Assembly: GCA_965215555.1 (NCBI GenBank)
Contig: OZ244071.1
Span: forward strand, 1,038,471 to 1,102,470
Length of the DNA: 64,000 bases
Origin: Dehalococcoidia bacterium
GTDB taxonomy: Bacteria; Chloroflexota; Dehalococcoidia; Bin125
Direction of reading: 5' to 3'
In this document: one piece after another, positions 3,631-28,091 of the stretch
Layout: each line of letters starts with the position of its first letter
How positions within the stretch are numbered: position 1 is the stretch's first letter
Translations under genes and position numbers: made by a program
Notes under the pieces: model-generated
What the model was told of the DNA's origin: nothing
Databases searched by the model: none
What the model saw: only the letters and a program-made list of their open reading frames with translations

Positions 3631-5607
3631 CTACGTGCCCAATCCGAGCTCGCGCAGGAATGCGTCGGCGTTTGGCTCCCGACCGAGGAACTGCTGGATC
3701 AAGTGCTCGGCATCCGCTGTTCCGCCCGGCTCGAGGATGTGCTGCCGATACTCGGCGCCGACGCTTGACACCGACGCACCTGGTGCTTCAAACCGCGTAA
3801 ACATATCGTCGCCAAACACACGTGACCACAAGTAGCCGTAGTAGCCCGCATCGTAGCCGAAGAGATGACCGAAACCAGCCTGGAAGTGCGTGTTTTCTGG
3901 AAACGGGAAACCAGTAATCGGATGTAGTTCGCGGGCCATATCGTCAGTGCTCTTGCCCGACTCCGAGTGATACGCCAAGTCCAACCGCGAGAAGTACACT
4001 TGCCGCAATGTGGCAATCGCCGATGACGTATGTTTCGCCTCAATCATCCGATTGATCAGCGAGGTCGGCAGCGGATCGCCCGACTCGTAATGTCGACTGA
4101 AGCTGCCCAACATCGCCGGCTGCCAGCACCAGTGCTCGAGCATCTGCGACGGCGCCTCGACAAAGTCACGCTCAACACGCGTTCCGCTGAAGCGTGTGAA
4201 ACGGGAGGTCGTCAACGTCTGGTGCAGAATGTGTCCGAACTCGTGGAACAGTGTCACCACCTCCGTGTGTCGCAACAGCGACGGCGACGTCTCGGTCGGC
4301 TTCGTGAAGTTGGCCACGATTGAGGAAATCGGGCGCTGGTACTCATCGCCCAGCCGCCGACCGCCGCGCAGCGTGAACGCCGCTGCATGTCCGAACTTTC
4401 CTGGTCGCGGATAGAGATCCATGTAGAAGCGTGCTAGTGCTTCCCCGGAGGACGGATCAACGATGTCAAACGGCTGCGCATCCTCGTGCCAGGCAGCATC
4501 CGTTGCATCCGGACGTGCGACAAACCTGACGCCCACCAACTCTTCGTAGATCCTGAACATTCCGTCCAGCACAGCGTCGAGTGGGAAGTATGCAGCGACG
4601 TCAAACGGATCGACTTGGTACTGCTCCTGAACCACCTGATTGGTGTAGTAGCGCCAATCGGCGATGTTGACTGGCCCCTGCTCACCGGTACGGCGCTCCT
4701 GCTCCCGCGCAAGTCTGTCCAGGTCGGCCGCCAGCTTCGGCTGCAATCGCTCCTCGAGGTCGGTGAGGAAGTCGAGCACGGCATGGGTCTGCTTGGCCAT
4801 CTTCACTTCAAGCGCGTACGCGGCCCATGACTCGAATCCCAGTCGTTGCGCCATGTCGGCTCGAACACCGAGTGCTTCCTCGAGGATCTCAATGTTGGCA
4901 CCGGACGCCTTGTTGTGGTTCTTGTGAAACAGCTCCCGCCGTCGGTCGGCATCGTGGGCGCTGTCCAGGAAAGGATGCAGCTCGGGATAGTCCAGCCCGA
5001 CCTTGTAGCGGACGGCCCCATCCACCTCGATCGTCCGCAGTCGCTCGATGTATCCGTCCGGCAGTCCATCGAGTTCATCGCGGCTGAGCTCAACGAAGTC
5101 TTCGTAGTCATCGATGTTCTTGCGAAACTGAATGCCCAGGCCGACAAGCCGTTCCTGCAGCGCCTTGAGTTCGTCGCGCGTCTGCTTGGGCAGTTCGAGT
5201 CCGTTGCGTCGATAGTCACGCAGCGCAAACTCCAACAGCCGTCGAGCGTCATCGGGCAACGCCTCCAACTCGGCTCTCGTCGCGTAGGCCTTGAGGGCAC
5301 GATCGATGTCCTCGCGAAACCCGATCCCTGCAGCGAAGACGTTTAATCGCTCTTCGTGCTGATGGGCGGCGGCCCGCAGGTCATCGTCTGCCGCGACCTG
5401 AGAAAAAAAGCCGAACTGACCCGAGGCCTGGTTCAGCACGTTGCCAATCTCATCAAGCGGCAACACCGTGTTGTCGAAGGTGCGCTGACCATCAGGGACA
5501 GAGACCAGCTCATCCGCCAGTCGGTCCACAGTCCGCATGGCATCATCGACGCCGCGTTCGATGTCTGCTGTTGTCGTCGTAGCCCAATTTGGTGTCTCGA
5601 TGCTCAT
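3631..5607 (-). CDS. M3 family zinc metallopeptidase (oligopeptidase A / peptidyl-dipeptidase Dcp-like)
   Basis: 658 aa with HEFGH zinc motif (LFHEFGHILHQ) and M3-typical C-terminal blocks (FQAGFGHLFGYDAGYY). Confidence 0.85.
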   Translation of the reverse strand: MSIETPNWATTTTADIERGVDDAMRTVDRLADELVSVPDGQRTFDNTVLPLDEIGNVLNQASGQFGFFSQVAADDDLRAAAHQHEERLNVFAAGIGFREDIDRALKAYATRAELEALPDDARRLLEFALRDYRRNGLELPKQTRDELKALQERLVGLGIQFRKNIDDYEDFVELSRDELDGLPDGYIERLRTIEVDGAVRYKVGLDYPELHPFLDSAHDADRRRELFHKNHNKASGANIEILEEALGVRADMAQRLGFESWAAYALEVKMAKQTHAVLDFLTDLEERLQPKLAADLDRLAREQERRTGEQGPVNIADWRYYTNQVVQEQYQVDPFDVAAYFPLDAVLDGMFRIYEELVGVRFVARPDATDAAWHEDAQPFDIVDPSSGEALARFYMDLYPRPGKFGHAAAFTLRGGRRLGDEYQRPISSIVANFTKPTETSPSLLRHTEVVTLFHEFGHILHQTLTTSRFTRFSGTRVERDFVEAPSQMLEHWCWQPAMLGSFSRHYESGDPLPTSLINRMIEAKHTSSAIATLRQVYFSRLDLAYHSESGKSTDDMARELHPITGFPFPENTHFQAGFGHLFGYDAGYYGYLWSRVFGDDMFTRFEAPGASVSSVGAEYRQHILEPGGTADAEHLIQQFLGREPNADAFLRELGLGT

Positions 5608-5716
5608 CAGCGCTCTCCTGTTGCGGCTACGGTACCCGCAGTCTTGGACAGTGCGTATGATCGTGCGAACGCTGAGTCAACACTCCACCCACTCGCGTAC
5701 TCATCCGAGGGTTGCC

Positions 5717-10055: not shown

Positions 10056-10700
10056 ATGACCGACCAACCCACTGACGCCCCCTTTGAAGATGCCCACTTC
10101 CAACGTGTCGACGAGTCCGCCGACACCAACTTCTACGCCCAGCCGAGACTCGTTGCCCACATCGATGACGCGGCGATCGGTGCGCTGCGCGAACATTACT
10201 CCAAGTTCCTACCGAGGCAGGGCCGCCTGCTCGACCTGATGTCGTCGTGGATTTCGCACTACCCCGACGACCTCGAGTCCCAGCGCGTCGCCGGACTGGG
10301 CATGAACGCCGAAGAGTTGGCCGAGAACCCTCAGCTCACCGAGTGGGTCGTTCATGACCTCAACGCTGATCCCATCCTGCCCTACGGCGACGGCGAATTC
10401 GATGTCGTCACTGTCGCCGTCTCTGTCCAATACCTGAAGCAGCCGCTCGATGTCTTCCGGGAGATCGGCCGTGTCCTGCGTCCCGGCGGAGGCTGCATCG
10501 TCTCCTTCTCAAACCGTTGCTTCCCAACCAAAGCCGTCAGTCTCTGGCAAGGAATGGGAGATGAAGGCCACGTGCAGCTCGTCGGGGCCTACTTCCACTA
10601 CTCGGAAGCCTTCGACCCACCCCAGTGGCACGACATCTCCCCCGCCAAGGGCCAAAGCGATCCAATGTACGTCGTCCAGTCGAGGACACCTCAGGCCTGA
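10056..10700 (+). CDS. Class I SAM-dependent methyltransferase (Methyltransf_11-like)
   Basis: VLRPGGGCIVSF motif, and the acidic motif DVVTVAVSVQYL. Confidence 0.7.
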   Translation: MTDQPTDAPFEDAHFQRVDESADTNFYAQPRLVAHIDDAAIGALREHYSKFLPRQGRLLDLMSSWISHYPDDLESQRVAGLGMNAEELAENPQLTEWVVHDLNADPILPYGDGEFDVVTVAVSVQYLKQPLDVFREIGRVLRPGGGCIVSFSNRCFPTKAVSLWQGMGDEGHVQLVGAYFHYSEAFDPPQWHDISPAKGQSDPMYVVQSRTPQA

Positions 10701-10916
10701 TCGCCAGATAGAAGTTGCGACGGCACGTTTGTCAATCTCTAGATCGCGCAGGATGGCAGCGATCGTTCCCGATTTGAGATCGCTGCTGCCCCAGTTGGGA
10801 ATCGTCGCCCGCTTCTGCGTTGCGGGGTTTCGCCAAGTCTCGTGCGAACCTCGTCCCTGCTCGTCAAAATAGCAACCGAGTGCCCGCAGCTTCTTCGTCA
10901 CTTGCCTGTAGTTCAA
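10509..10916 (-). CDS. hicA: HicA-family toxin (mRNA interferase) with an unusual ~70-aa C-terminal extension
   Basis: TTG start; MNYRQVTKKLRALGCYFDEQGRGSHETWRNPATQKRATIPNWGSSDLKSGTIAAILRDLEI is a canonical HicA domain. The ORF continues antisense into the 3' end of the methyltransferase gene. Confidence 0.6.
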   Translation of the reverse strand: MNYRQVTKKLRALGCYFDEQGRGSHETWRNPATQKRATIPNWGSSDLKSGTIAAILRDLEIDKRAVATSIWRSGLRCPRLDDVHWIALALGGGDVVPLGWVEGFRVVEVGPDELHVAFISHSLPETDGFGWEATV

Positions 10917-11120
10917 GCCGACACCAGCAACTCGCCTACCTGAACGATTTCAGGAGGCAGAGGGTCGCCATGCTTGATGTGGGAGGCGATGAACGCCTCG
11001 GCGACACCCTCCCAAAATCCAGAGCGCTTCCTCCGGCGTATCGGCCCATGCGCAACATCCCGGAAGACTGGGCAATTCGGCCAGGAACATCTCCCCGGTG
11101 TCCTCGCACGGTTCCCGCAT
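10913..11120 (-). pseudogene. hicB: hicB antitoxin, frameshifted
   Basis: Frame c gives MREPCEDTGEMFLAELPSLPGCCAWADTPEEALW (HicB/UPF0150 hallmark). Around 11010-11025 it continues in frame a as EGVAEAFIASHIKHGDPLPPEIVQVGELLVSA*. The stop overlaps the hicA TTG start (TTGA). Confidence 0.5.
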
Positions 11121-11303
11121 CGTATAGGCCAGTCGGTATTGCTTGGTAATCCGGACCCTCCTGGACCGATTCTACCAACTTCCCAACCACTTGCCGCAGG
11201 CGCGAATCCTTGGCTCGGCGCCGTGAGCTCTGAAGTGCGTTGTCCAATCGACGACGCATCATTCGCAGAGTTACGATAGATCGCACACTTGACACGCAAG
11301 ACG

Positions 11304-14150
11304 TTACCGACAGAACGACTCTTCGTCGGCAGGCAACCGGAACTCGATGCCCGACACATCCTTGTTGGAGATCGTGATACCTGTCGCACTCTCCCACACC
11401 TTCGTCGGACCTGACCTACGGTAGCGAATGCGACAATCACCGAACTCGGTCCCCACCGACAATCGATACGTACCATTAGTAGTCACCGACATCGAGAACG
11501 ACCCATCTGCACCCGACTCGCCCCCTCCAGAGCCGCTATTGCCTTCAGCGTGGACCCATTCACCAGCGCGCGGGCTTCCATCGGCATTCAGCAACTTGCC
11601 CAGAATGCGGTTTACGCACATGCCCTCGTCAAGTTGCATTCTCAAGCCCGTCAAGTCTACATCCGACACACGCACAAGAGTCGCACTAGCCCACTTACCC
11701 GTAACGCCGTTGTTGCGGTAGTAGACATGGCACCCATCAATCCTGGCAGTTACTCGATATCGACCTGCTTCCGGAGCGGTTATCACAAACGCACCAGAAG
11801 CATCGGTCTGGGTTGAGCTATGAACATTGCCGTTCCCGATCCAAACACTGGTGTTCGTGATGGGAGCGCCGTCGGCTTCCAGCAACGTACCGGCGATCTT
11901 GGTCGAGCACTGTCCAGGGGAAAGCTTAAACACGACCCTCGTGACATCGTCATCGACGGCGAGCCTGGCAGCCTGCTTCTGGATTGGCGTTGTGCTGCCG
12001 CGACGATAGTACGTCCAGCATCCGTTGATCTGGGCTTGGATGAAGTACCGTCCTGAATCCGCGATGGAGATATCGAATGCGCCATCTGCATCAGTATGGT
12101 CTCCAGGTCCCCAGCTAGATTCTGTGCGCACGTTTACCCAGACGTCTGACATCGGCTGTCCGTCGGCATCCAACAGCCTCCCTGAGATGCCCGCCGAGCA
12201 CGCTGTCTCCGATATCACGAAATCGATTCCATCAACGTCCGAATCGGCAATGACGATGTCAGTTGCGTTGTCCCGACTTCCACTCGTCGCCGATTCGTTG
12301 TAGTAGTAGCCGCATTCGTCGATGTACACGCGCATGAGATACACACCCGATACTGGCACAGTGATGGAAAACGTTCCGTCGCTACCGATACGCGCGTTGC
12401 CATTTGCGTAACCGGTATCTACGTTGATCTGTTGGTTGGCTGGCAGCACGTTTCCACGGTCAACCACACGTCCGTTGATCCGCCAGACGCAAGTCTCGTC
12501 TGTTAGTGCCAAGGAGACTCTCTCGACACCTTCCGCTGACGGCGAGAGCAATTCAGCATCTTCCCACTTGTACACGGCCCCGTTGGAGGTGTAATAGACC
12601 GCACACCCACCAAGATCCACACCCCACTGCACTCCGCCGGTCCCTGGCGCTGCCAGCTCGAATTCCCCGTTGCCATCAGTGGACGTCTCGAAGTAGCTGT
12701 GGCCGCCTTCCCCAAGGAGATGCTCGGTCCTCGCCACTATCTTGACATACGGCAACCCTGCGCCTTCGGGTCCGACGACTCGTCCTCGGGCCAAGACCGG
12801 CGCCAACTCTGAGCGCCAAGCTGCAAATTCGCTGTAGAAGTCGTCAACGGAAATCCCAAAGACATCATGAAACGCCGCCTGCCACGGAGGATTGGTTTGC
12901 CAACGACCAAGCGGGCCTAGCGGCTCCGCCAAGAGTGCACGCCAGAAGTCGAGCAGTGATGATAGGCCGCTGCGTATCGCGAGCTGATGCGAAGCGACCG
13001 TGCCAAGGGTGTACTCCCAGCCGTGACTCTCTGGCCTAATTTCAAGGACCTTCAACGGCGGTATATCCTCAGATGCAATATGTTGACGATCTTCCGCCAG
13101 TTCGTTCTTCGCTGTTTTGGTATCGCGGAGCACGAATCTAGCTCTCACCCACTGAGCGTCGCCTTCCACCAGCCAAATGGCGGCGTCTGAGCTGCCCATC
13201 TGGAGCTGTATTGTGTGGTAATACTCATGAGCCAAAATGCGGCGGCCATAGGTATATCCACCATATGCGTCACCTCTGTTATTCCTATGGTCAGATCTCC
13301 ATTGTTCCGCCTTCTGCACAACGTAGCTTTCGTCCGCCCAACCCTCAGAACGGTACCAAGTACGGTGGATACCGTCGGTGTTATGTCCATCCTTCTCCAT
13401 TGCCTCTACCAGTAAGTCAGGATCTGTAGCGATGTACAGGGAGAGCATGGATCCGTCTGGCTGAACACCAAACTCTTCAGCGAACCAATTCATGATGTCA
13501 ATGGAATCCTGGCCGACAGTCGCCTTGATATCCGCCGCAATTTCTCCTGCAAACACGACTGTCGGCATCACCCCAGCGGGCTGGAGCCAGTTGACAGTGC
13601 GTGAGACTTCAACCCAGATTGCGGCGCCTCGCTTCAAAGCCGGCAGAGACTTTGCGGTCGTGGTTTCTGCCGGTGTGTACTCACCACCCTCCCATTCTGC
13701 TCTGACCAACGCGCGACCGATGCCCAGGGCAACACGGTCAATGGCCCAATCGTCAGGTCCCAACCACGTTACGAGATTGCGCCCTCGATGGAGCGTGACT
13801 TTGCCCTTGACCGGCATCATTGGACGGCGCCATTGCACAGCCTCGGTACCGGCCAGCGTGACGATGTATCCCTGACCCGCCAATAGGCTGGCTGGCTCGT
13901 AGAACTGGCCAGTTAACGGCTCCCATGCCGAAACCGATTCAATCGCAGGGAGTCGCTGCTTTACCTGCGCAATCGGCAACGGCTCGCCGAGCCAACCGAC
14001 GAGGTTTTCGCCTGGCTGCAGAGTGACGACGCCCGGATCAACAGGCCCAGTCGTCTCAGTCGTCTCATCCGCCAACAGTGGACCGAGCCCCGCCGCCAAG
14101 CAGGCGACGAGGCCGAGGATTAGCCCAATCAGCAGCCGAGGCAGGCGCAT
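11304..14150 (-). CDS. Large secreted putative zinc metallopeptidase (HExxH...E, peptidase-MA-like) with five C-terminal Cys-bracketed ~95-aa beta-sandwich-type repeats
   Basis: Signal peptide MRLPRLLIGLILGLVACLAAG; duplicated ~65-aa N-terminal module (VTLQPGENLVGWLG / VTLHRGRNLVTWLG); AHEYYHTIQ...LVEGDAQW; repeats C..G.LLDADGQP...TDADGAF...GRY...C.YYR. Lower GC than neighbours. Confidence 0.7.
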   Translation of the reverse strand: MRLPRLLIGLILGLVACLAAGLGPLLADETTETTGPVDPGVVTLQPGENLVGWLGEPLPIAQVKQRLPAIESVSAWEPLTGQFYEPASLLAGQGYIVTLAGTEAVQWRRPMMPVKGKVTLHRGRNLVTWLGPDDWAIDRVALGIGRALVRAEWEGGEYTPAETTTAKSLPALKRGAAIWVEVSRTVNWLQPAGVMPTVVFAGEIAADIKATVGQDSIDIMNWFAEEFGVQPDGSMLSLYIATDPDLLVEAMEKDGHNTDGIHRTWYRSEGWADESYVVQKAEQWRSDHRNNRGDAYGGYTYGRRILAHEYYHTIQLQMGSSDAAIWLVEGDAQWVRARFVLRDTKTAKNELAEDRQHIASEDIPPLKVLEIRPESHGWEYTLGTVASHQLAIRSGLSSLLDFWRALLAEPLGPLGRWQTNPPWQAAFHDVFGISVDDFYSEFAAWRSELAPVLARGRVVGPEGAGLPYVKIVARTEHLLGEGGHSYFETSTDGNGEFELAAPGTGGVQWGVDLGGCAVYYTSNGAVYKWEDAELLSPSAEGVERVSLALTDETCVWRINGRVVDRGNVLPANQQINVDTGYANGNARIGSDGTFSITVPVSGVYLMRVYIDECGYYYNESATSGSRDNATDIVIADSDVDGIDFVISETACSAGISGRLLDADGQPMSDVWVNVRTESSWGPGDHTDADGAFDISIADSGRYFIQAQINGCWTYYRRGSTTPIQKQAARLAVDDDVTRVVFKLSPGQCSTKIAGTLLEADGAPITNTSVWIGNGNVHSSTQTDASGAFVITAPEAGRYRVTARIDGCHVYYRNNGVTGKWASATLVRVSDVDLTGLRMQLDEGMCVNRILGKLLNADGSPRAGEWVHAEGNSGSGGGESGADGSFSMSVTTNGTYRLSVGTEFGDCRIRYRRSGPTKVWESATGITISNKDVSGIEFRLPADEESFCR

Positions 14151-15157: not shown

Positions 15158-17530
15158 CTACTCACACAGATTTTCGTAGACCCACTCAATCCCGGTCACA
15201 TCGGCACCTGCGATCGTGATCTTGTCACTAGTGCTGGGAGCCAATGTCGAGTCTCCAGCCTGACGCCGAAAGACATTGCAACCATCTTGCCACGCATACA
15301 ACCAATACTCTCCATTTGTAGGAACAAGAAACCCAAAATGGCCATCCGAATCTGTCATCATAGAATCTAGGCTCTCACTACCACCACTCACAGCAACCAA
15401 TACCTGTCCTCTGGGATTGCCTCCACGATCTAGTACCCTACCTTGCAGCCGCCATGCGCACAAGTCTTTCGGTATACTCACCTGAAGCCCTATCAGCTCT
15501 ACTCCAAGGGGAAACCATCTGCTATCACTTTGAGACACGATCAGTCCATGGTCACCAACCCAAGCATAACATCCAGCACCTCCACCGGCTGCGTCGCCAA
15601 GGTCCACTCTCACTTGGTAGCGACTGCCAGCCGTCGCCCAATGTGTAAAGGGTTGTCCGCAACTCTGTTGCACTCCATGACCATTTCCGCTTTCGGCTAC
15701 CAGAAGTACAGCAAAATACTCGTTGCAATAGTCGGATGCCTCGTCTCGCACTACGGTGACTGTTAATCCCCCCATGCAGGCACCGTGTGGGAGTTCCAGA
15801 TTCAGTCGAGTCGGCTTCGCCACACTCACGTAACGAACTTCGTTTGCACTAGGAATGTCAGTCCTTAGGCCATCGCGGGAGAGATATAACCTGCAAGCGT
15901 CCCCCCGTGCTACCTGTATCCTTTGGCTTATGTTGGGCGGCACACGCAGCATAAACGAACCGTCATCTTCAACTCGTGCACTGTAGACAATTGATCCTTC
16001 CACCCACTTACCATTCTTGTAGTGGAGAGCCTCAACGACAAAATCTGTCGCAGGAAGGTCACTGTCATAGGTCAGGCGGCCAAGCAACACCGCTTTGTCC
16101 CACTCTTCAGGAAGTGGGTTTCGCCATGTTCTATGCCACTTTTCGAACTCGCTATAGAAGTTGGTCAACGTCAGGCCGAAAACACTAGCAAAGGTGTCTT
16201 GCTGAGGAATCCTGTACGCTGGGAGATCATCCGCTCCCAGACTCTGCGGATAGCTTTGTCGGAAGTACTCGACAATTGAATCGAAACTACTGAGTTCCAC
16301 TAGTCGATCGACGGCTAGAAGGCCGAGAGAATATTCATAGTTCTTGTTCCTTTGCCAGTCGACCATCGGCAATGTAACATGAGGGCTCCTGGCAGCATCA
16401 AGCGGGAAACTTCGGCTCGCCTGAAATGAGATGCTGCCGTCAGCAACGGCCAGCCCATACCCACTCCACTCTGCTGAGCCTTCAATCATCCAAAATGGAC
16501 GAGCAGAGTCGTTGTAACTCAATTGGAATTGTAGCGTGTGAAACAATTCATGGGCAAAGACAGGCACATTGAGAGAGTCGTCAAGTTGACCACCACACCA
16601 TGACGAGCCATCGCAGATGGACATTGTTACGCCTCCGCCCCCACCGAGGATGGGATTGTTTATGAGGCTGCGGCGGAGCGTGTCCCGATTAGAATAATAT
16701 TGGAAGTTTGAAACGTAGTACTCTACTGCCGCGTTTAGGTCATTCCACAACGTAAGTCTTGTGTTTGCGAAGTCGGTCTCGACCCCGTAAGTGGAGGCAA
16801 AATAGTCAATGACGCGGAGGATGTCGCTCGATATTCTCTCCTTCAGCGGCAAGGAAAAGTCCCCAATCCACACCACCTCCGGCATCATCCCAGTCGGCTG
16901 CAGCCAGCGTAGGTCCCTATTGACCGTGACCCGCAGCGCGTCGCCCCGACGCAGGGTGGACTGCCCGCTTAGCGGCTCGATCGCCACGGAGATGTTGTCG
17001 TTGGGCTGATAGACGATGCCGCGTTCCTCGACCTCGATGCTGACCAGTGACGTGCCGATCCCGCGCGCGACCTGGTCAAGCGGCCATTCGTCGCGACCGT
17101 TCCACGCGACCCAATTGACACCCGAATAGAGCGTCACCATTCCCTTGGCCGGCGTCAGTGAGCGCTCCCACTTGACCGTTTTGCGGCCCTCAATGCGAAT
17201 CCTCGCGGACATACCCGGGTCGAGCCGCTCGAGCGTGCCACCGACGTCGCGGATGGCGTGGCGATACGTTCGCGAGTCCGCATTCCAGGTGTAGATCAGC
17301 GTCGCGGCAGAGATCTGCTCGAAGATGTCAGCAACCGCGATCGGCTCGGCGACCCAGCCGACGAAGTTGTCGCCGGGATGCAATTCCAGGGTCTCGGTCG
17401 GTGCGTCAGCAGCACGAGCGTCGGAAGGGAAGAGACCCAATGCCAGCAGAACAGCGGCCGTGGCCAGCAGTCCAATCAGCAGCTTCGGCCTACTGACGAG
17501 CCGAAGTCGGGAGGGGAACGGAAGGGGCAT
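15158..17530 (-). CDS. Paralogous secreted putative zinc metallopeptidase (HExxH...E) with C-terminal Cys-bracketed repeats
   Basis: Start at MPLPFPSRLRLVSRPKLLIGLLATAAVLLALG (17530, AGGA RBS). Same N-terminal module (LELHPGDNFVGWV / VTLYSGVNWVAWNG), AHELFHTLQ...MIEGSAEW, and three C-terminal repeats ending in C..F.R. Distinctly AT-richer. Confidence 0.7.
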   Translation of the reverse strand: MPLPFPSRLRLVSRPKLLIGLLATAAVLLALGLFPSDARAADAPTETLELHPGDNFVGWVAEPIAVADIFEQISAATLIYTWNADSRTYRHAIRDVGGTLERLDPGMSARIRIEGRKTVKWERSLTPAKGMVTLYSGVNWVAWNGRDEWPLDQVARGIGTSLVSIEVEERGIVYQPNDNISVAIEPLSGQSTLRRGDALRVTVNRDLRWLQPTGMMPEVVWIGDFSLPLKERISSDILRVIDYFASTYGVETDFANTRLTLWNDLNAAVEYYVSNFQYYSNRDTLRRSLINNPILGGGGGVTMSICDGSSWCGGQLDDSLNVPVFAHELFHTLQFQLSYNDSARPFWMIEGSAEWSGYGLAVADGSISFQASRSFPLDAARSPHVTLPMVDWQRNKNYEYSLGLLAVDRLVELSSFDSIVEYFRQSYPQSLGADDLPAYRIPQQDTFASVFGLTLTNFYSEFEKWHRTWRNPLPEEWDKAVLLGRLTYDSDLPATDFVVEALHYKNGKWVEGSIVYSARVEDDGSFMLRVPPNISQRIQVARGDACRLYLSRDGLRTDIPSANEVRYVSVAKPTRLNLELPHGACMGGLTVTVVRDEASDYCNEYFAVLLVAESGNGHGVQQSCGQPFTHWATAGSRYQVRVDLGDAAGGGAGCYAWVGDHGLIVSQSDSRWFPLGVELIGLQVSIPKDLCAWRLQGRVLDRGGNPRGQVLVAVSGGSESLDSMMTDSDGHFGFLVPTNGEYWLYAWQDGCNVFRRQAGDSTLAPSTSDKITIAGADVTGIEWVYENLCE

Positions 17531-17601
17531 CGAACATCCTGTCGGTCTAACTAACGCGGGCAGGCTAGACCGACAGAACACGCCTACTTGACAGAACGAC
17601 C

Positions 17602-17862
17602 TTAGTCAGCGGCCTCAACACTCGTCTCGGCCCGACGCGCCGCCTCAGCATCCGCCTTCTCCAACGCCGCTTGTTTGATGAAGCGGCCAAGCGGTATCTC
17701 CCGCCTGGAGCTCCTCGCCTTCAGCCGAGCCATCTCTTCGCGACTGAACGTGATTTCCATTCCAAATCGACCAGGTCCCTGATCGGCCGGATCGTAAGGA
17801 ATCTCCTCTGCCTCAAGTATTGGCGGGCTCATCACATGGACTGGTCGCTCGGACTCGGTCAT
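17602..17862 (-). CDS. BrnA-like ribbon-helix-helix antitoxin
   Basis: ...MEITFSREEMARLKARSS...RFIKQAALEKA; start overlaps the upstream toxin stop. Confidence 0.55.
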   Translation of the reverse strand: MTESERPVHVMSPPILEAEEIPYDPADQGPGRFGMEITFSREEMARLKARSSRREIPLGRFIKQAALEKADAEAARRAETSVEAAD

Positions 17863-18215
17863 CAGGTTCGCATCCTTCCACCGGGTTGATTGTATCGCGT
17901 TTGATCAGTGCGGTTTGCCTGCCACCCAGTGACCACTCTCGATTCACCATATCCGTCTGGCAAGGCAAGGATGAACGTCAAGAGACGCCCTCCAAAATCA
18001 GGACCAATCATCACAACTCGAGCCGGCTGCTTCCACGGCAGACCGAATTCATCAACCTCTTGCCGCTCGCGCTGCTCGAAGTATTTTGCCTGCCCTAACC
18101 ACACTTCCACGGCGTCAGAAAAATCTAGTCGATGACGCCAGAGATGCTCATCTAAGCGGTCGCTGCCGTTCAGCCCATGCTCAGGAATCTGAACCATGTC
18201 GAGGAACTTACCCAA
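17862..18215 (-). CDS. BrnT-like (DUF497) ribonuclease toxin
   Basis: ...DEHLWRHRLDFSDAVEV..GQAKYF...GRLLTFIL...VVTGW...TRYNQPGGRMR. Start may be the internal MVQIPEHG. Confidence 0.55.
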   Translation of the reverse strand: MGKFLDMVQIPEHGLNGSDRLDEHLWRHRLDFSDAVEVWLGQAKYFEQRERQEVDEFGLPWKQPARVVMIGPDFGGRLLTFILALPDGYGESRVVTGWQANRTDQTRYNQPGGRMRT

Positions 18216-18275
18216 TACACAACGGCGCCGCGCCTCAGCGGTCAGACCCTCTGCTGAATCAGTACTGGCGTGCGC

Positions 18276-18539
18276 TCAGTCGGCAGCTTCCACAGACTGA
18301 TCGGCTTGTTGATCGGCGTGCTGCCTCGCCTGGGCCTCTGCCTTCTCCAACGCCGCCTGCTTGATGAAGCGAATCAGTGGACCGCGAGGATGTCTCGTCT
18401 TGAGTCGGTTGATCTCGTCCCGATCGAACTCGATCTCAAGACGCATGACCCCAGGACCCTTCTTGGCTGGGTCATAGGGAATCTCTTCCAGATCGTCGAT
18501 TGGCGTATCAATGTGGACCGGAGATCGTCGTGTGGTCAT
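18276..18539 (-). CDS. BrnA-like RHH antitoxin (second copy)
   Basis: MTTRRSPVHIDTPIDDLEEIPYDPAKKGPGVMRLEIEFDRDEINRLK...RFIKQAALEKAEA. Start chosen at 18539, overlapping the toxin stop. Confidence 0.55.
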   Translation of the reverse strand: MTTRRSPVHIDTPIDDLEEIPYDPAKKGPGVMRLEIEFDRDEINRLKTRHPRGPLIRFIKQAALEKAEAQARQHADQQADQSVEAAD

Positions 18540-18874
18540 CGAATTCGCATCCTTGTTCCTGGCTGATGGTAGCGAGTTTGCTCGCCGGGAGTCGATATCC
18601 ACCCGGTGACGACATGGGACAGTTGGTCGTGACTTGGCACTTCGAGAATGAAGGTCAGAAGACGGCCACGAAGATCCGGGCCAACCATTTTGACTCGTTC
18701 AGGTTGTACACCCTCGTTTCCCAACTCGTCGAATCGAGGTCTGGAAGGTTGAGGAAAGTACTTGGCCGGACCAGTCCAGACGTCATTGGCATCGTCAAGC
18801 GTCAGGCCGTGCGACCGCAAATGCTCATCACTGACACCATTGCCAGTGACGCCGCGATATGGGATTTCAGGCAA
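18536..18874 (-). CDS. BrnT-like toxin (second copy)
   Basis: MPEIPYRGVTGNGVSDEHLRSHGLTLDDANDVWTGPAKYF...GRLLTFILEV...VVTGW...TRYHQPG. Confidence 0.55.
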   Translation of the reverse strand: MPEIPYRGVTGNGVSDEHLRSHGLTLDDANDVWTGPAKYFPQPSRPRFDELGNEGVQPERVKMVGPDLRGRLLTFILEVPSHDQLSHVVTGWISTPGEQTRYHQPGTRMRIR

Positions 18875-18893: not shown

Positions 18894-18929
18894 ACAACGA
18901 AGCCCCGCCGATGGCGGGGCTTCGTTGTT
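18894..18929 (-). terminator. Perfect 15-16-bp stem hairpin downstream of aceA
   Basis: acaacgaagccccgcc-gatg-gcggggcttcgttgt, immediately 3' of the aceA stop. Weak U-tract. Confidence 0.5.
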
Positions 18930-24815: not shown

Positions 24816-24890
24816 GCGGGGGTAGCTCAGGGGTAGAGCTCCTGCCTTCCAAGCAGGTGGCCGCGGGTTCGAATCCCGTCCCCCGCTCCA
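24816..24890 (+). tRNA. tRNA-Gly (anticodon TCC), CCA encoded
   Basis: Cloverleaf folded by hand: acceptor gcggggg/cccccgc, anticodon stem cctgc/gcagg, loop cttccaa. Confidence 0.85.
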
Positions 24891-27510: not shown

Positions 27511-27747
27511 CTAGTCGGCTTCTAGCAGCTCGCTGCGCTGCGCACTCGCGGCACGACGGTCTGCCTCTTCAAGCGCAGCGTTCCTGATGAACCGAGTGAT
27601 TTTCGTGTCTCGGTTCAAGCCCCGTTTCAGTCGTTGCACATCATCCGGCGAAAACTCGACCTCGATGATCATCCGTCCAGGAGTCTGACGCTCACCCACC
27701 AATTCCGCAGTGTCTGCGGAAATCTCCTCGTCACGGTGAACACTCAT
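27511..27747 (-). CDS. BrnA-like RHH antitoxin (third copy)
   Basis: ...MIIEVEFSPDDVQRLKRGLNRDTKITRFIRNAALEEA; ATGA overlap with the toxin. Confidence 0.55.
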   Translation of the reverse strand: MSVHRDEEISADTAELVGERQTPGRMIIEVEFSPDDVQRLKRGLNRDTKITRFIRNAALEEADRRAASAQRSELLEAD

Positions 27748-28091
27748 CGGCGACGCGTCCTTCCACCCGGCTGACGATACCTCGCCTGCTGACCTTTGTC
27801 TGCAGGGTAGCCAGTTACAACGTGGGACGTTCCGTTCTTGGCAGGCAACTCAAGCACGATCATGAGGAGCTGGCCAAGTTGATTTGGCCCGATCATCCTC
27901 AGTCGCCTCGGTTGGCGGAACCAGACGCCGTCTTCATCCAAACCCGATCTGGCATCTTGAGGGAAGAACTTCGCTGGCCCATCATAGACCTCCTGGGCGT
28001 CCACAAATGTCAGGCCATGAGCGGCGAGTTCTTCGTCTGTTGCGTCATTGCCGGTGAGACCATACCTGGGAATCTCAAACACCGGACGCAA
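27744..28091 (-). CDS. BrnT-like toxin (third copy)
   Basis: MRPVFEIPRYGLTGNDATDEELAAHGLTFVDAQEVYDGPAKFF...GQLLMIVLEL...VVTGY...ARYRQPGGR. Confidence 0.55.
   Translation of the reverse strand: MRPVFEIPRYGLTGNDATDEELAAHGLTFVDAQEVYDGPAKFFPQDARSGLDEDGVWFRQPRRLRMIGPNQLGQLLMIVLELPAKNGTSHVVTGYPADKGQQARYRQPGGRTRRR

Follow-up and report, generated by a model that had tools for sequence, protein, structure and literature searches.

The closest known counterparts of the gene pairs described here are the BrnT/BrnA toxin-antitoxin (TA) system of Brucella abortus (PDB 3U97; Pfam PF04365, formerly DUF497) and the Salmonella Typhimurium complex 7VD7, for which our literature search found no paper describing the structure. 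BrnT is a ribosome-independent mRNA endonuclease, and its partner BrnA is a ribbon-helix-helix (RHH) protein that binds the toxin and represses the operon. A BrnT-fold RNase outside this classical family is found in RelS-RelI of M. tuberculosis (Rv2663-Rv2664, PDB 9SDC), where RelS spares free mRNA and cuts the anti-Shine-Dalgarno region of 16S rRNA on the 30S subunit (PMC13284704). In a 64-kb stretch of a Dehalococcoidia genome (contig OZ244071.1; the whole stretch is called the window below) we find three toxin-antitoxin gene pairs, T1/A1, T2/A2 and T3/A3. We consider it probable that these are type II TA cassettes, in which a remodelled BrnT-fold endoribonuclease toxin is paired with an RHH antitoxin, and that the cassettes are exchanged at two fixed chromosomal sites.

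As the original prediction for this DNA held, all six open reading frames (ORFs) lie on the minus strand in toxin-then-antitoxin order with overlaps of 1 or 4 nucleotides (nt), two pairs in tandem and a third, paralogous pair that spans 27511-28082 with the start chosen here (Table 1). The start codons of the six ORFs were picked by homology to relatives, which gives toxins of 111-112 amino acids (aa); the 112-117 aa given earlier were taken from the longest ORFs, which begin at a TTG at 18215 for T1 (117 aa) and extend to 28091 for T3. Toxin-first pairs with an overlap of 1 or 4 nt account for 3/3 pairs in the window and for 35 of 47 when related loci are counted together with it. Pairwise alignment of the three copies shows toxins that are ~50% identical and antitoxins that are 44-60% identical, and synonymous divergence (dS) between the window paralogues is saturated. 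The three copies are therefore old paralogues, and a recent duplication is ruled out on the same grounds. A tblastn search with 41 family pairs found no fourth copy in the window. The toxin and antitoxin motifs quoted in the prediction are present and conserved in the alignments.

Both the toxin and the antitoxin genes are real and under purifying selection. Orthologous comparisons that are well clear of saturation gave ratios of nonsynonymous to synonymous divergence (dN/dS) of 0.05-0.3, for toxin and antitoxin genes alike. Orthologues of T3 in three related loci (L015, L041 and L042) are 84-86% identical with a dN/dS of 0.05-0.07, and the corresponding values for A3 are 0.09-0.10. The T2 orthologue in L001, the closest relative, is 96% identical; two near-identical L001 comparisons gave 0.39 and 0.44 and involve very few changes. 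The pairs have the general features of a type II TA module: small, adjacent, co-directional and overlapping genes, a pairing that is kept across ~30 genomes, and a toxin with a predicted BECR/BrnT fold.

The family appears confined to one bacterial group. Homologue searches returned 87 toxin clusters and 134 antitoxin clusters; all of the latter are unnamed or called 'hypothetical protein', and every named organism among them belongs to the Chloroflexi. An exhaustive hidden Markov model (HMM) search of 1.84 billion representative proteins yielded only 68 relatives at E<=0.001. The toxin motifs were found in 50 loci from ~30 genomes (one genome per species), all of them metagenome-assembled genomes of Dehalococcoidia/Chloroflexota. 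An exact-sequence look-up of T1 gave no record; a protein that is 97% identical to T1 (P0002) led to the syntenic locus L001. All occurrences of the family are on Dehalococcoidia chromosomes; the canonical BrnT homologues that we retrieved are plasmid-borne. None of 2.9 million viral contigs yielded a member of the toxin family, so there is no evidence of carriage by phages. Judged from their names, the bins SB0664, IRC, RHO1 and PNGco look sponge-derived. One further bin, bin125, comes from the sponge Aplysina aerophoba (PMC5649159), and the flanks of its locus are 89-93% identical to the window.

Toxin fold and active site

Pfam BrnT_toxin is the sole Pfam match of the window toxins, at 16.0 bits for T1 (16.3 from the ATG start), 12.6 bits for T2 and 15.3 bits for T3, against a cut-off of 34.5. 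Those distant toxin relatives that were tested also remain under the cut-off, at <=24 bits. The same family matched 35 of the 47 toxin relatives at E<=1 (best E 4.3e-6) and is the only Pfam family that recurs. Aligned by hhalign with four plasmid proteins annotated 'BrnT family toxin', the toxin profile gave an E of 5.4e-5 and a probability of 66% over 78 columns. A profile that includes more distant relatives aligned over the full length with the Salmonella toxin 7vd7_A (E 1.1e-4), whose homologues carry the annotation 'BrnT family toxin' and adjoin BrnA genes. The AlphaFold2 model of T1 reached a predicted local distance difference test score (pLDDT) of 92.4, and a Foldseek search with this model returned a probability of 1.00 for both top structures, with BrnT as the best structural match. 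In this model the toxin has the three-dimensional BrnT fold, and it is predicted to be a member of the RelE/ParE (BECR) superfamily. At the level of sequence its homology to BrnT is weak but consistent, and applies to the superfamily and not to the family. Of the earlier assignment to BrnT (DUF497), the fold and the superfamily stand, on the recurrence of the Pfam family, the structure and the profile alignment, whereas the thresholds of the curated family are missed; no other family matches the toxins better.

The residues K16, H17 and R72 are cited in PMC13284704 as contributing to the toxicity of BrnT, and K9, H10 and H64 are critical in RelS (PMC13284704). We mapped these positions onto 41 toxins through hhalign and profile alignments, using T1 numbering. 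Position 21, which corresponds to BrnT K16, is variable (Ala in 12, Arg in 7, Lys in 6, Ser in 4 and Glu in 4 toxins, with other residues in the rest), and position 92, which corresponds to R72, is Trp in 35 toxins and Tyr in 6 but never Arg. The equivalent of H17 at position 22 is His in 40/41 toxins, and position 60, the Arg of the BrnT YRWQT strand, is Arg in all 41. Position 87, equivalent to RelS H64 and an Arg in BrnT, is His in 28 and Arg in 11 of the 41. Besides R60, the residues K38, Q42, T90, G91, Y102, P105, G106, R108 and R110 are invariant in 41/41 toxins and particular to this family; K38 and Q42 lie within the motif GPAKYFxQ. The C-terminal motif RYxQPGGRxR is family-specific and invariant or nearly so, and the toxin model has a C-terminal helix at residues 96-103. 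The active site thus appears to be partly remodelled relative to BrnT. The original prediction had named an absence of the BrnT catalytic residues as grounds for abandoning it, and such an absence is found in part: the H17 equivalent is kept, and those of K16 and R72 are not.

These differences bear on whether the pairs could be an ordinary BrnT/BrnA system, with a toxin that cuts mRNA independently of the ribosome and an RHH antitoxin that represses its own operon. Such a reading would be in line with BrnT being the best match in both sequence and structure, with a toxin-first order as in brnTA, and with a plausible RHH core in the antitoxin. Against it stand Pfam scores of 12.6-16.3 bits where 34.5 is required and the lack of an NCBIfam match, the lack of conservation of the K16 and R72 equivalents, and an extra C-terminal helix and tail that are absent from BrnT (PMC13284704). 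Compared with BrnT, the toxins also carry an insertion of ~9-10 residues between the first strands, and their PGGRxR tail is invariant. Together with the properties of the antitoxin given below, this makes an ordinary BrnT/BrnA system improbable.

A second possibility is that the toxins act like RelS of M. tuberculosis and not like BrnT. Like RelS, they stand outside the classical family; they also have the IGPDxxGRLL motif in common with RelS and not with canonical BrnT, a His on the beta4-equivalent strand (at the RelS H64 position in 28/41 toxins), a C-terminal helix that is present in RelS and absent from BrnT (PMC13284704), and the toxin-first order. However, the match of the toxin profile to RelS (9sdc_C) is non-significant at E 0.078-0.26, and 7vd7, a member of the BrnT family, matches better. 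Neither K9 nor R69 of RelS has a conserved equivalent in the toxins, and RelS has 77 aa where the present toxins have 111-112 aa. In addition, 9SDC is absent from the results of both structure searches, whose libraries it may postdate, and the RelI antitoxin, a helix-turn-helix protein by the description in PMC13284704, has no similarity to the antitoxins here. A RelS-like mode of action is therefore rather unlikely in our estimate, if somewhat less so than an ordinary BrnT/BrnA system.

Beside BrnT and RelS, the toxins form a third, distinct and uncurated branch of BrnT-fold toxins. Most likely, the toxin would be an endoribonuclease that arrests translation and would be toxic to the cell through this activity. 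Its active site would retain His22 and Arg60, with His or Arg at position 87, while the positions of BrnT K16 and R72 have not been kept, and it would have gained the additional C-terminal helix and the invariant Arg-rich tail RYxQPGGRxR. The target could be mRNA, which BrnT cuts, or rRNA, which is the substrate of RelS.

The antitoxin partner

In contrast to the toxins, the antitoxins could not be related to the partner of BrnT that the original prediction had proposed. The BrnA models of Pfam and NCBIfam did not match any of the window antitoxins at E<=10, nor any of 52 relatives at E<=1. No Pfam, NCBIfam or PADLOC family matched the three antitoxins above threshold, and none recurs among the 52 relatives. 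By hhalign, the alignment with four annotated BrnA proteins has a probability of 2.7% (E 0.017), with only the generic strand-helix-helix in register. The arrangement of the protein also differs: in BrnA the RHH lies at the extreme C-terminus after an N-terminal region of ~55 aa, whereas here it is predicted to be central, behind a different N-terminus and followed by an added tail. By sequence, the antitoxin is not BrnA and cannot be placed in any described family.

The general idea of an RHH antitoxin fared better. The AlphaFold2 monomer of A1 (pLDDT 70) lacks regular secondary structure in residues 1-40 and has helices at 41-51 and 58-84. A profile match to the PDB entry 2kke (E 0.064) places a strand and two helices in register with the antitoxin, with A1 residues 34-40 aligned to the strand, and A1 has a weak match to Pfam DUF6290 (E 0.056). 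Foldseek hits of the A1 model all have E>1, and the better-ranked ones are mostly RHH proteins (HicB, MatP, CdbA, CopG, TacA1 with a TM-score of 0.80, Reg576, PutA, NikA and Arc). Taken together, these models suggest that the antitoxin probably has an RHH core preceded by a disordered N-terminus. The predicted strand-helix-helix core of ~40 residues resembles that of RHH antitoxins and regulators (CopG/Arc/MetJ; TacA, the HicB C-terminal domain, VapB and ParD), and its hydrophobic and basic pattern is like that of 2KKE and DUF6290. RelI is different in having a helix-turn-helix, which is not predicted here; this comparison rests on the published description and our model.

No significant match links the antitoxin to the described RHH families, and several features are specific to it: His9, which is invariant, a segment with the sequence EEIPYDPAxxGPG, and the residues ...AAD at the end of the protein. 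A second search, with a profile of 52 antitoxin sequences, reached no Pfam-annotated relative, so the antitoxin is not anchored to any named RHH family. An E-I-P(-Y) motif is common to the toxin N-terminus (consensus M-x-E-I-P-x-x-G) and to the antitoxin segment EEIPYDPA at residues ~18-25, and antitoxins of the T3 type do not have it; its presence in both partners could be due to chance or could represent a mimicry element. In our model of the system, the disordered N-terminal segment with the invariant His would be the toxin-specific neutralising part, and the RHH core would mediate dimerisation and DNA binding.

Cassette turnover at two chromosomal sites

When the proteins that neighbour the cassettes in the window were mapped onto the 50 related loci, about 40 of these lay at one of two fixed chromosomal sites; the others have different or unrecognised flanks. 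Site A directly follows malate synthase and isocitrate lyase; next to it, in those loci that have one, comes a secreted paralogue that is hypervariable. Site B is bounded by carB-pyrK on one side and by an SMP-30/gluconolactonase-like gene on the other, with 5-formyltetrahydrofolate cyclo-ligase after the latter. The number of copies per site varies from 1 to 3, and L021 has three tandem pairs. The original prediction had placed the tandem pairs downstream of secreted paralogues; read by transcription, they come after isocitrate lyase and ahead of the secreted 807-aa paralogue. It had also taken three copies in 64 kb as a mark of accessory DNA. This description fits only the cassettes, which are replaceable islets with a GC content of 54-58% between flanks of 62-65%, and not the neighbourhood, where malate synthase, isocitrate lyase, carB and pyrK are core genes in a synteny that is conserved across ~30 species genomes. 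We considered and rejected a mobile element as an explanation for the region, given the lack of an integrase or transposase flanking the cassettes in the window and the conserved synteny of the core-gene flanks.

Comparison with close relatives shows that cassettes are replaced within otherwise conserved DNA. For L030 and L011, at site B, identity to the window is mostly 85-98% on both flanks (60-nt windows) and 40-65% exactly across T3/A3. It drops just past the pyrK stop (~28160) and rises again within the 3' end of the antitoxin gene (~27560). For L031 and L029, at site A, it is 96-100% over most of isocitrate lyase, then 45-71% across the toxin gene and the first ~13 antitoxin codons, and 83-95% over the next ~120 nt of the antitoxin gene. 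In these two loci the toxin and the first ~17 antitoxin codons have been replaced together relative to the window, and antitoxin residues 18-70 are 88-92% identical. L031 lacks the stretch from the middle of A2 to the middle of A1 and retains a single pair, whose antitoxin is a chimera of an A2-like front and an A1-like 3' end. In a neighbourhood of conserved core genes, the pairs are live cassettes that can be replaced. We propose that homologous recombination exchanges, duplicates and deletes them, and that the downstream crossover takes place in the 3' half of the antitoxin gene, which is conserved.

In the 41 pairs compared, divergence of the toxin is correlated with that of the antitoxin N-terminus at r 0.61 and with that of the core at r 0.59; for the C-terminal tail the correlation is much lower (r 0.34). 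The short acidic C-tail of the antitoxin (...AAD, ...EAD or ...ESA; 17602-17650, 18276-18330 and 27511-27560 in the window) follows the chromosomal site and the genome and not the toxin. In L004, L021 and L022, tandem paralogues of one genome have C-tails that are 81-94% identical and toxins that are 53-59% identical. This pattern points to gene conversion, or to co-adaptation to a host factor, for example a protease.

Fragments of toxin genes, truncated or frameshifted, occur beside intact antitoxin genes in L008 and L010 (3560-3969) and in L049, L050 and L051, which indicates the decay of cassettes to orphan antitoxins, with assembly errors as a possible alternative. Such fragments raise the question of whether the window pairs are themselves domesticated or decaying remnants that persist as passengers or regulators in housekeeping operons. 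The loss of two of the three BrnT toxicity residues, the lack of room for an own promoter at the pyrK site, and the TTG start of T2 where relatives have ATG would all be compatible with this. On the other hand, both genes are under purifying selection, ~12 toxin positions are invariant in 41 sequences and include His, Arg and Lys residues typical of RNase sites, and the overlap of start and stop codons has been preserved. That intact cassettes have come in as replacements again and again likewise fits a selfish or selected activity better than decay. We regard remnants as improbable, and as the least likely of the alternatives.

The upstream boundary of the cassette site after isocitrate lyase is marked by a hairpin, whose 74-nt fold has a free energy of -39.5 kcal/mol (z -6.8). 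The hairpin is kept across species, and in some of them its two arms have changed in step (CCCCGCC/GGCGGGG to CCCAGCC/GGCTGGG). It may act as a terminator or stabilise the RNA, or it may be a boundary of recombination. At the other end of the tandem pairs, an inverted repeat precedes the 807-aa gene and is possibly a terminator or a further boundary of the cassette site.

Table 1. Genes and repeat elements of the three cassettes in the window
Feature	Position	Strand	Description
Toxin T2	18536-18874	-	112 aa; TTG start; divergent protein with predicted BrnT fold
Antitoxin A2	18276-18539	-	87 aa; ATG overlaps the T2 stop as ATGA; predicted RHH core
Toxin T1	17862-18197	-	111 aa; ATG start; protein used for the structure model
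Antitoxin A1	17602-17862	-	86 aa; 1-nt overlap with the T1 stop (TGATG)
Toxin T3	27744-28082	-	112 aa; GTG start 9 nt after AAGGAG; third paralogue, pyrK site
Antitoxin A3	27511-27747	-	78 aa; ATGA overlap with T3
GC-rich hairpin	18894-18928	-	Perfect 16-bp, without a U-tract; just after the isocitrate lyase stop, ~20 nt before the T2 start
Inverted repeat TGTCGGTCTA / TAGACCGACA	17540-17575		10-bp perfect, 16-nt spacer; located after the A1 stop and before the start of the 807-aa gene

The secreted paralogues beside site A are hypervariable (15158-17581 and 11304-14150, both on the minus strand, in the window; 10665-13031 and 14042-16615 in L001). In the 807-aa protein we note a signal-peptide-like N-terminus, carboxypeptidase-regulatory-like domains and the HExxH motif HELFH. 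The protein is only 26-49% identical in genomes with an isocitrate lyase that is 94-100% identical, and it is missing in L002 and L013; ~1.6 kb of its gene (15200-16800) has a GC content of 51-53%, compared with 62-65% nearby. In L001, located on a 3.57-Mb contig, an IS110-family transposase gene (4731-5678) lies just upstream of malate synthase, and a gene for a 78-aa UPF0150 (HicB-like) protein is found at 16674-16910, downstream of the secreted paralogues. The window has a tRNA gene at 24816-24887 on the plus strand (Rfam RF00005, 72.6 bits), situated between its two cassette sites, and the Rfam scan gave nothing beyond it.

Expression context and implications

The cassettes are tightly packed among their neighbours. 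At site A the toxin start follows the hairpin at a distance of ~20-25 nt. At site B the pyrK stop and the toxin start are only 10-50 nt apart, and the A3 stop lies 16 nt ahead of the start of the SMP-30/gluconolactonase-like gene. The cassettes sit within co-directional strings of housekeeping genes that leave little or no space for a separate promoter, and their co-transcription with these genes is plausible. The T2 gene starts with TTG in the window, compared with ATG in its orthologues of L001, L029 and L031, where the context is otherwise nearly identical; translation of T2 may be reduced in the window by this start codon.

Several results weigh against the reading of the pairs as active, remodelled type II TA cassettes with an RHH antitoxin. 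The window toxins do not reach the curated BrnT threshold (Pfam PF04365), the NCBIfam scan of the toxins gave no match at E<=10, and the PADLOC defence models matched none of the six proteins. Only one of the three BrnT toxicity residues, the His, is kept; as the other two are not conserved, catalysis could differ or be absent. The RHH assignment comes from a monomer model with a pLDDT of 70, Foldseek hits at E>1 and an HMM match at E 0.06, which are non-significant. In some cassette pairs the antitoxin N-termini are similar yet the toxins are only 62-69% identical, so the N-terminus is not the sole determinant of specificity. Finally, we found no sigma-70-like promoter upstream of any window toxin (a weak negative, from a scan for the sigma-70 consensus only) and no operator-like inverted repeat there, which leaves classical autoregulation unsupported. 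With these points included, a type II TA cassette built from a BrnT-fold toxin and an RHH antitoxin remains our favoured and likely interpretation.

A more far-reaching version of this interpretation would be a lineage-specific exchange system embedded in operons, in which modules of a toxin and an antitoxin N-terminus diversify fast, are exchanged through homologous recombination at two hot spots, are co-transcribed with glyoxylate-shunt and pyrimidine genes, and encode a toxin with a remodelled site and an RNA target unlike those of BrnT and RelS. Recombination would be anchored by the end of the upstream gene (or the hairpin) on one side and by the conserved 3' half of the antitoxin gene on the other. 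In place of the Lys and Arg of BrnT, the site of the toxin would be formed by His22, Arg60, His/Arg87 and the PGGRxR tail. We hold this elaborate scenario to be unlikely as a whole.

The general category to which the pairs are assigned, a type II module with an RNase of the RelE superfamily, is itself ordinary. What sets the family apart is that it adds a third, uncurated branch to the BrnT-fold toxins, with a differing catalytic constellation and an antitoxin partner from no described family. Annotation pipelines miss both genes, and their relatives are unnamed or called 'hypothetical protein'. TA systems have been reported to be enriched in sponge symbionts (PMC5649159), and the present finding bears on this report. 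With two sites, 1-3 copies and breakpoints in the antitoxin gene, the family offers a clean natural system in which to follow TA diversification and the specificity segment of the antitoxin. If the exchange-system scenario were true, translation control or phage defence would be linked to central metabolism in uncultured Dehalococcoidia.

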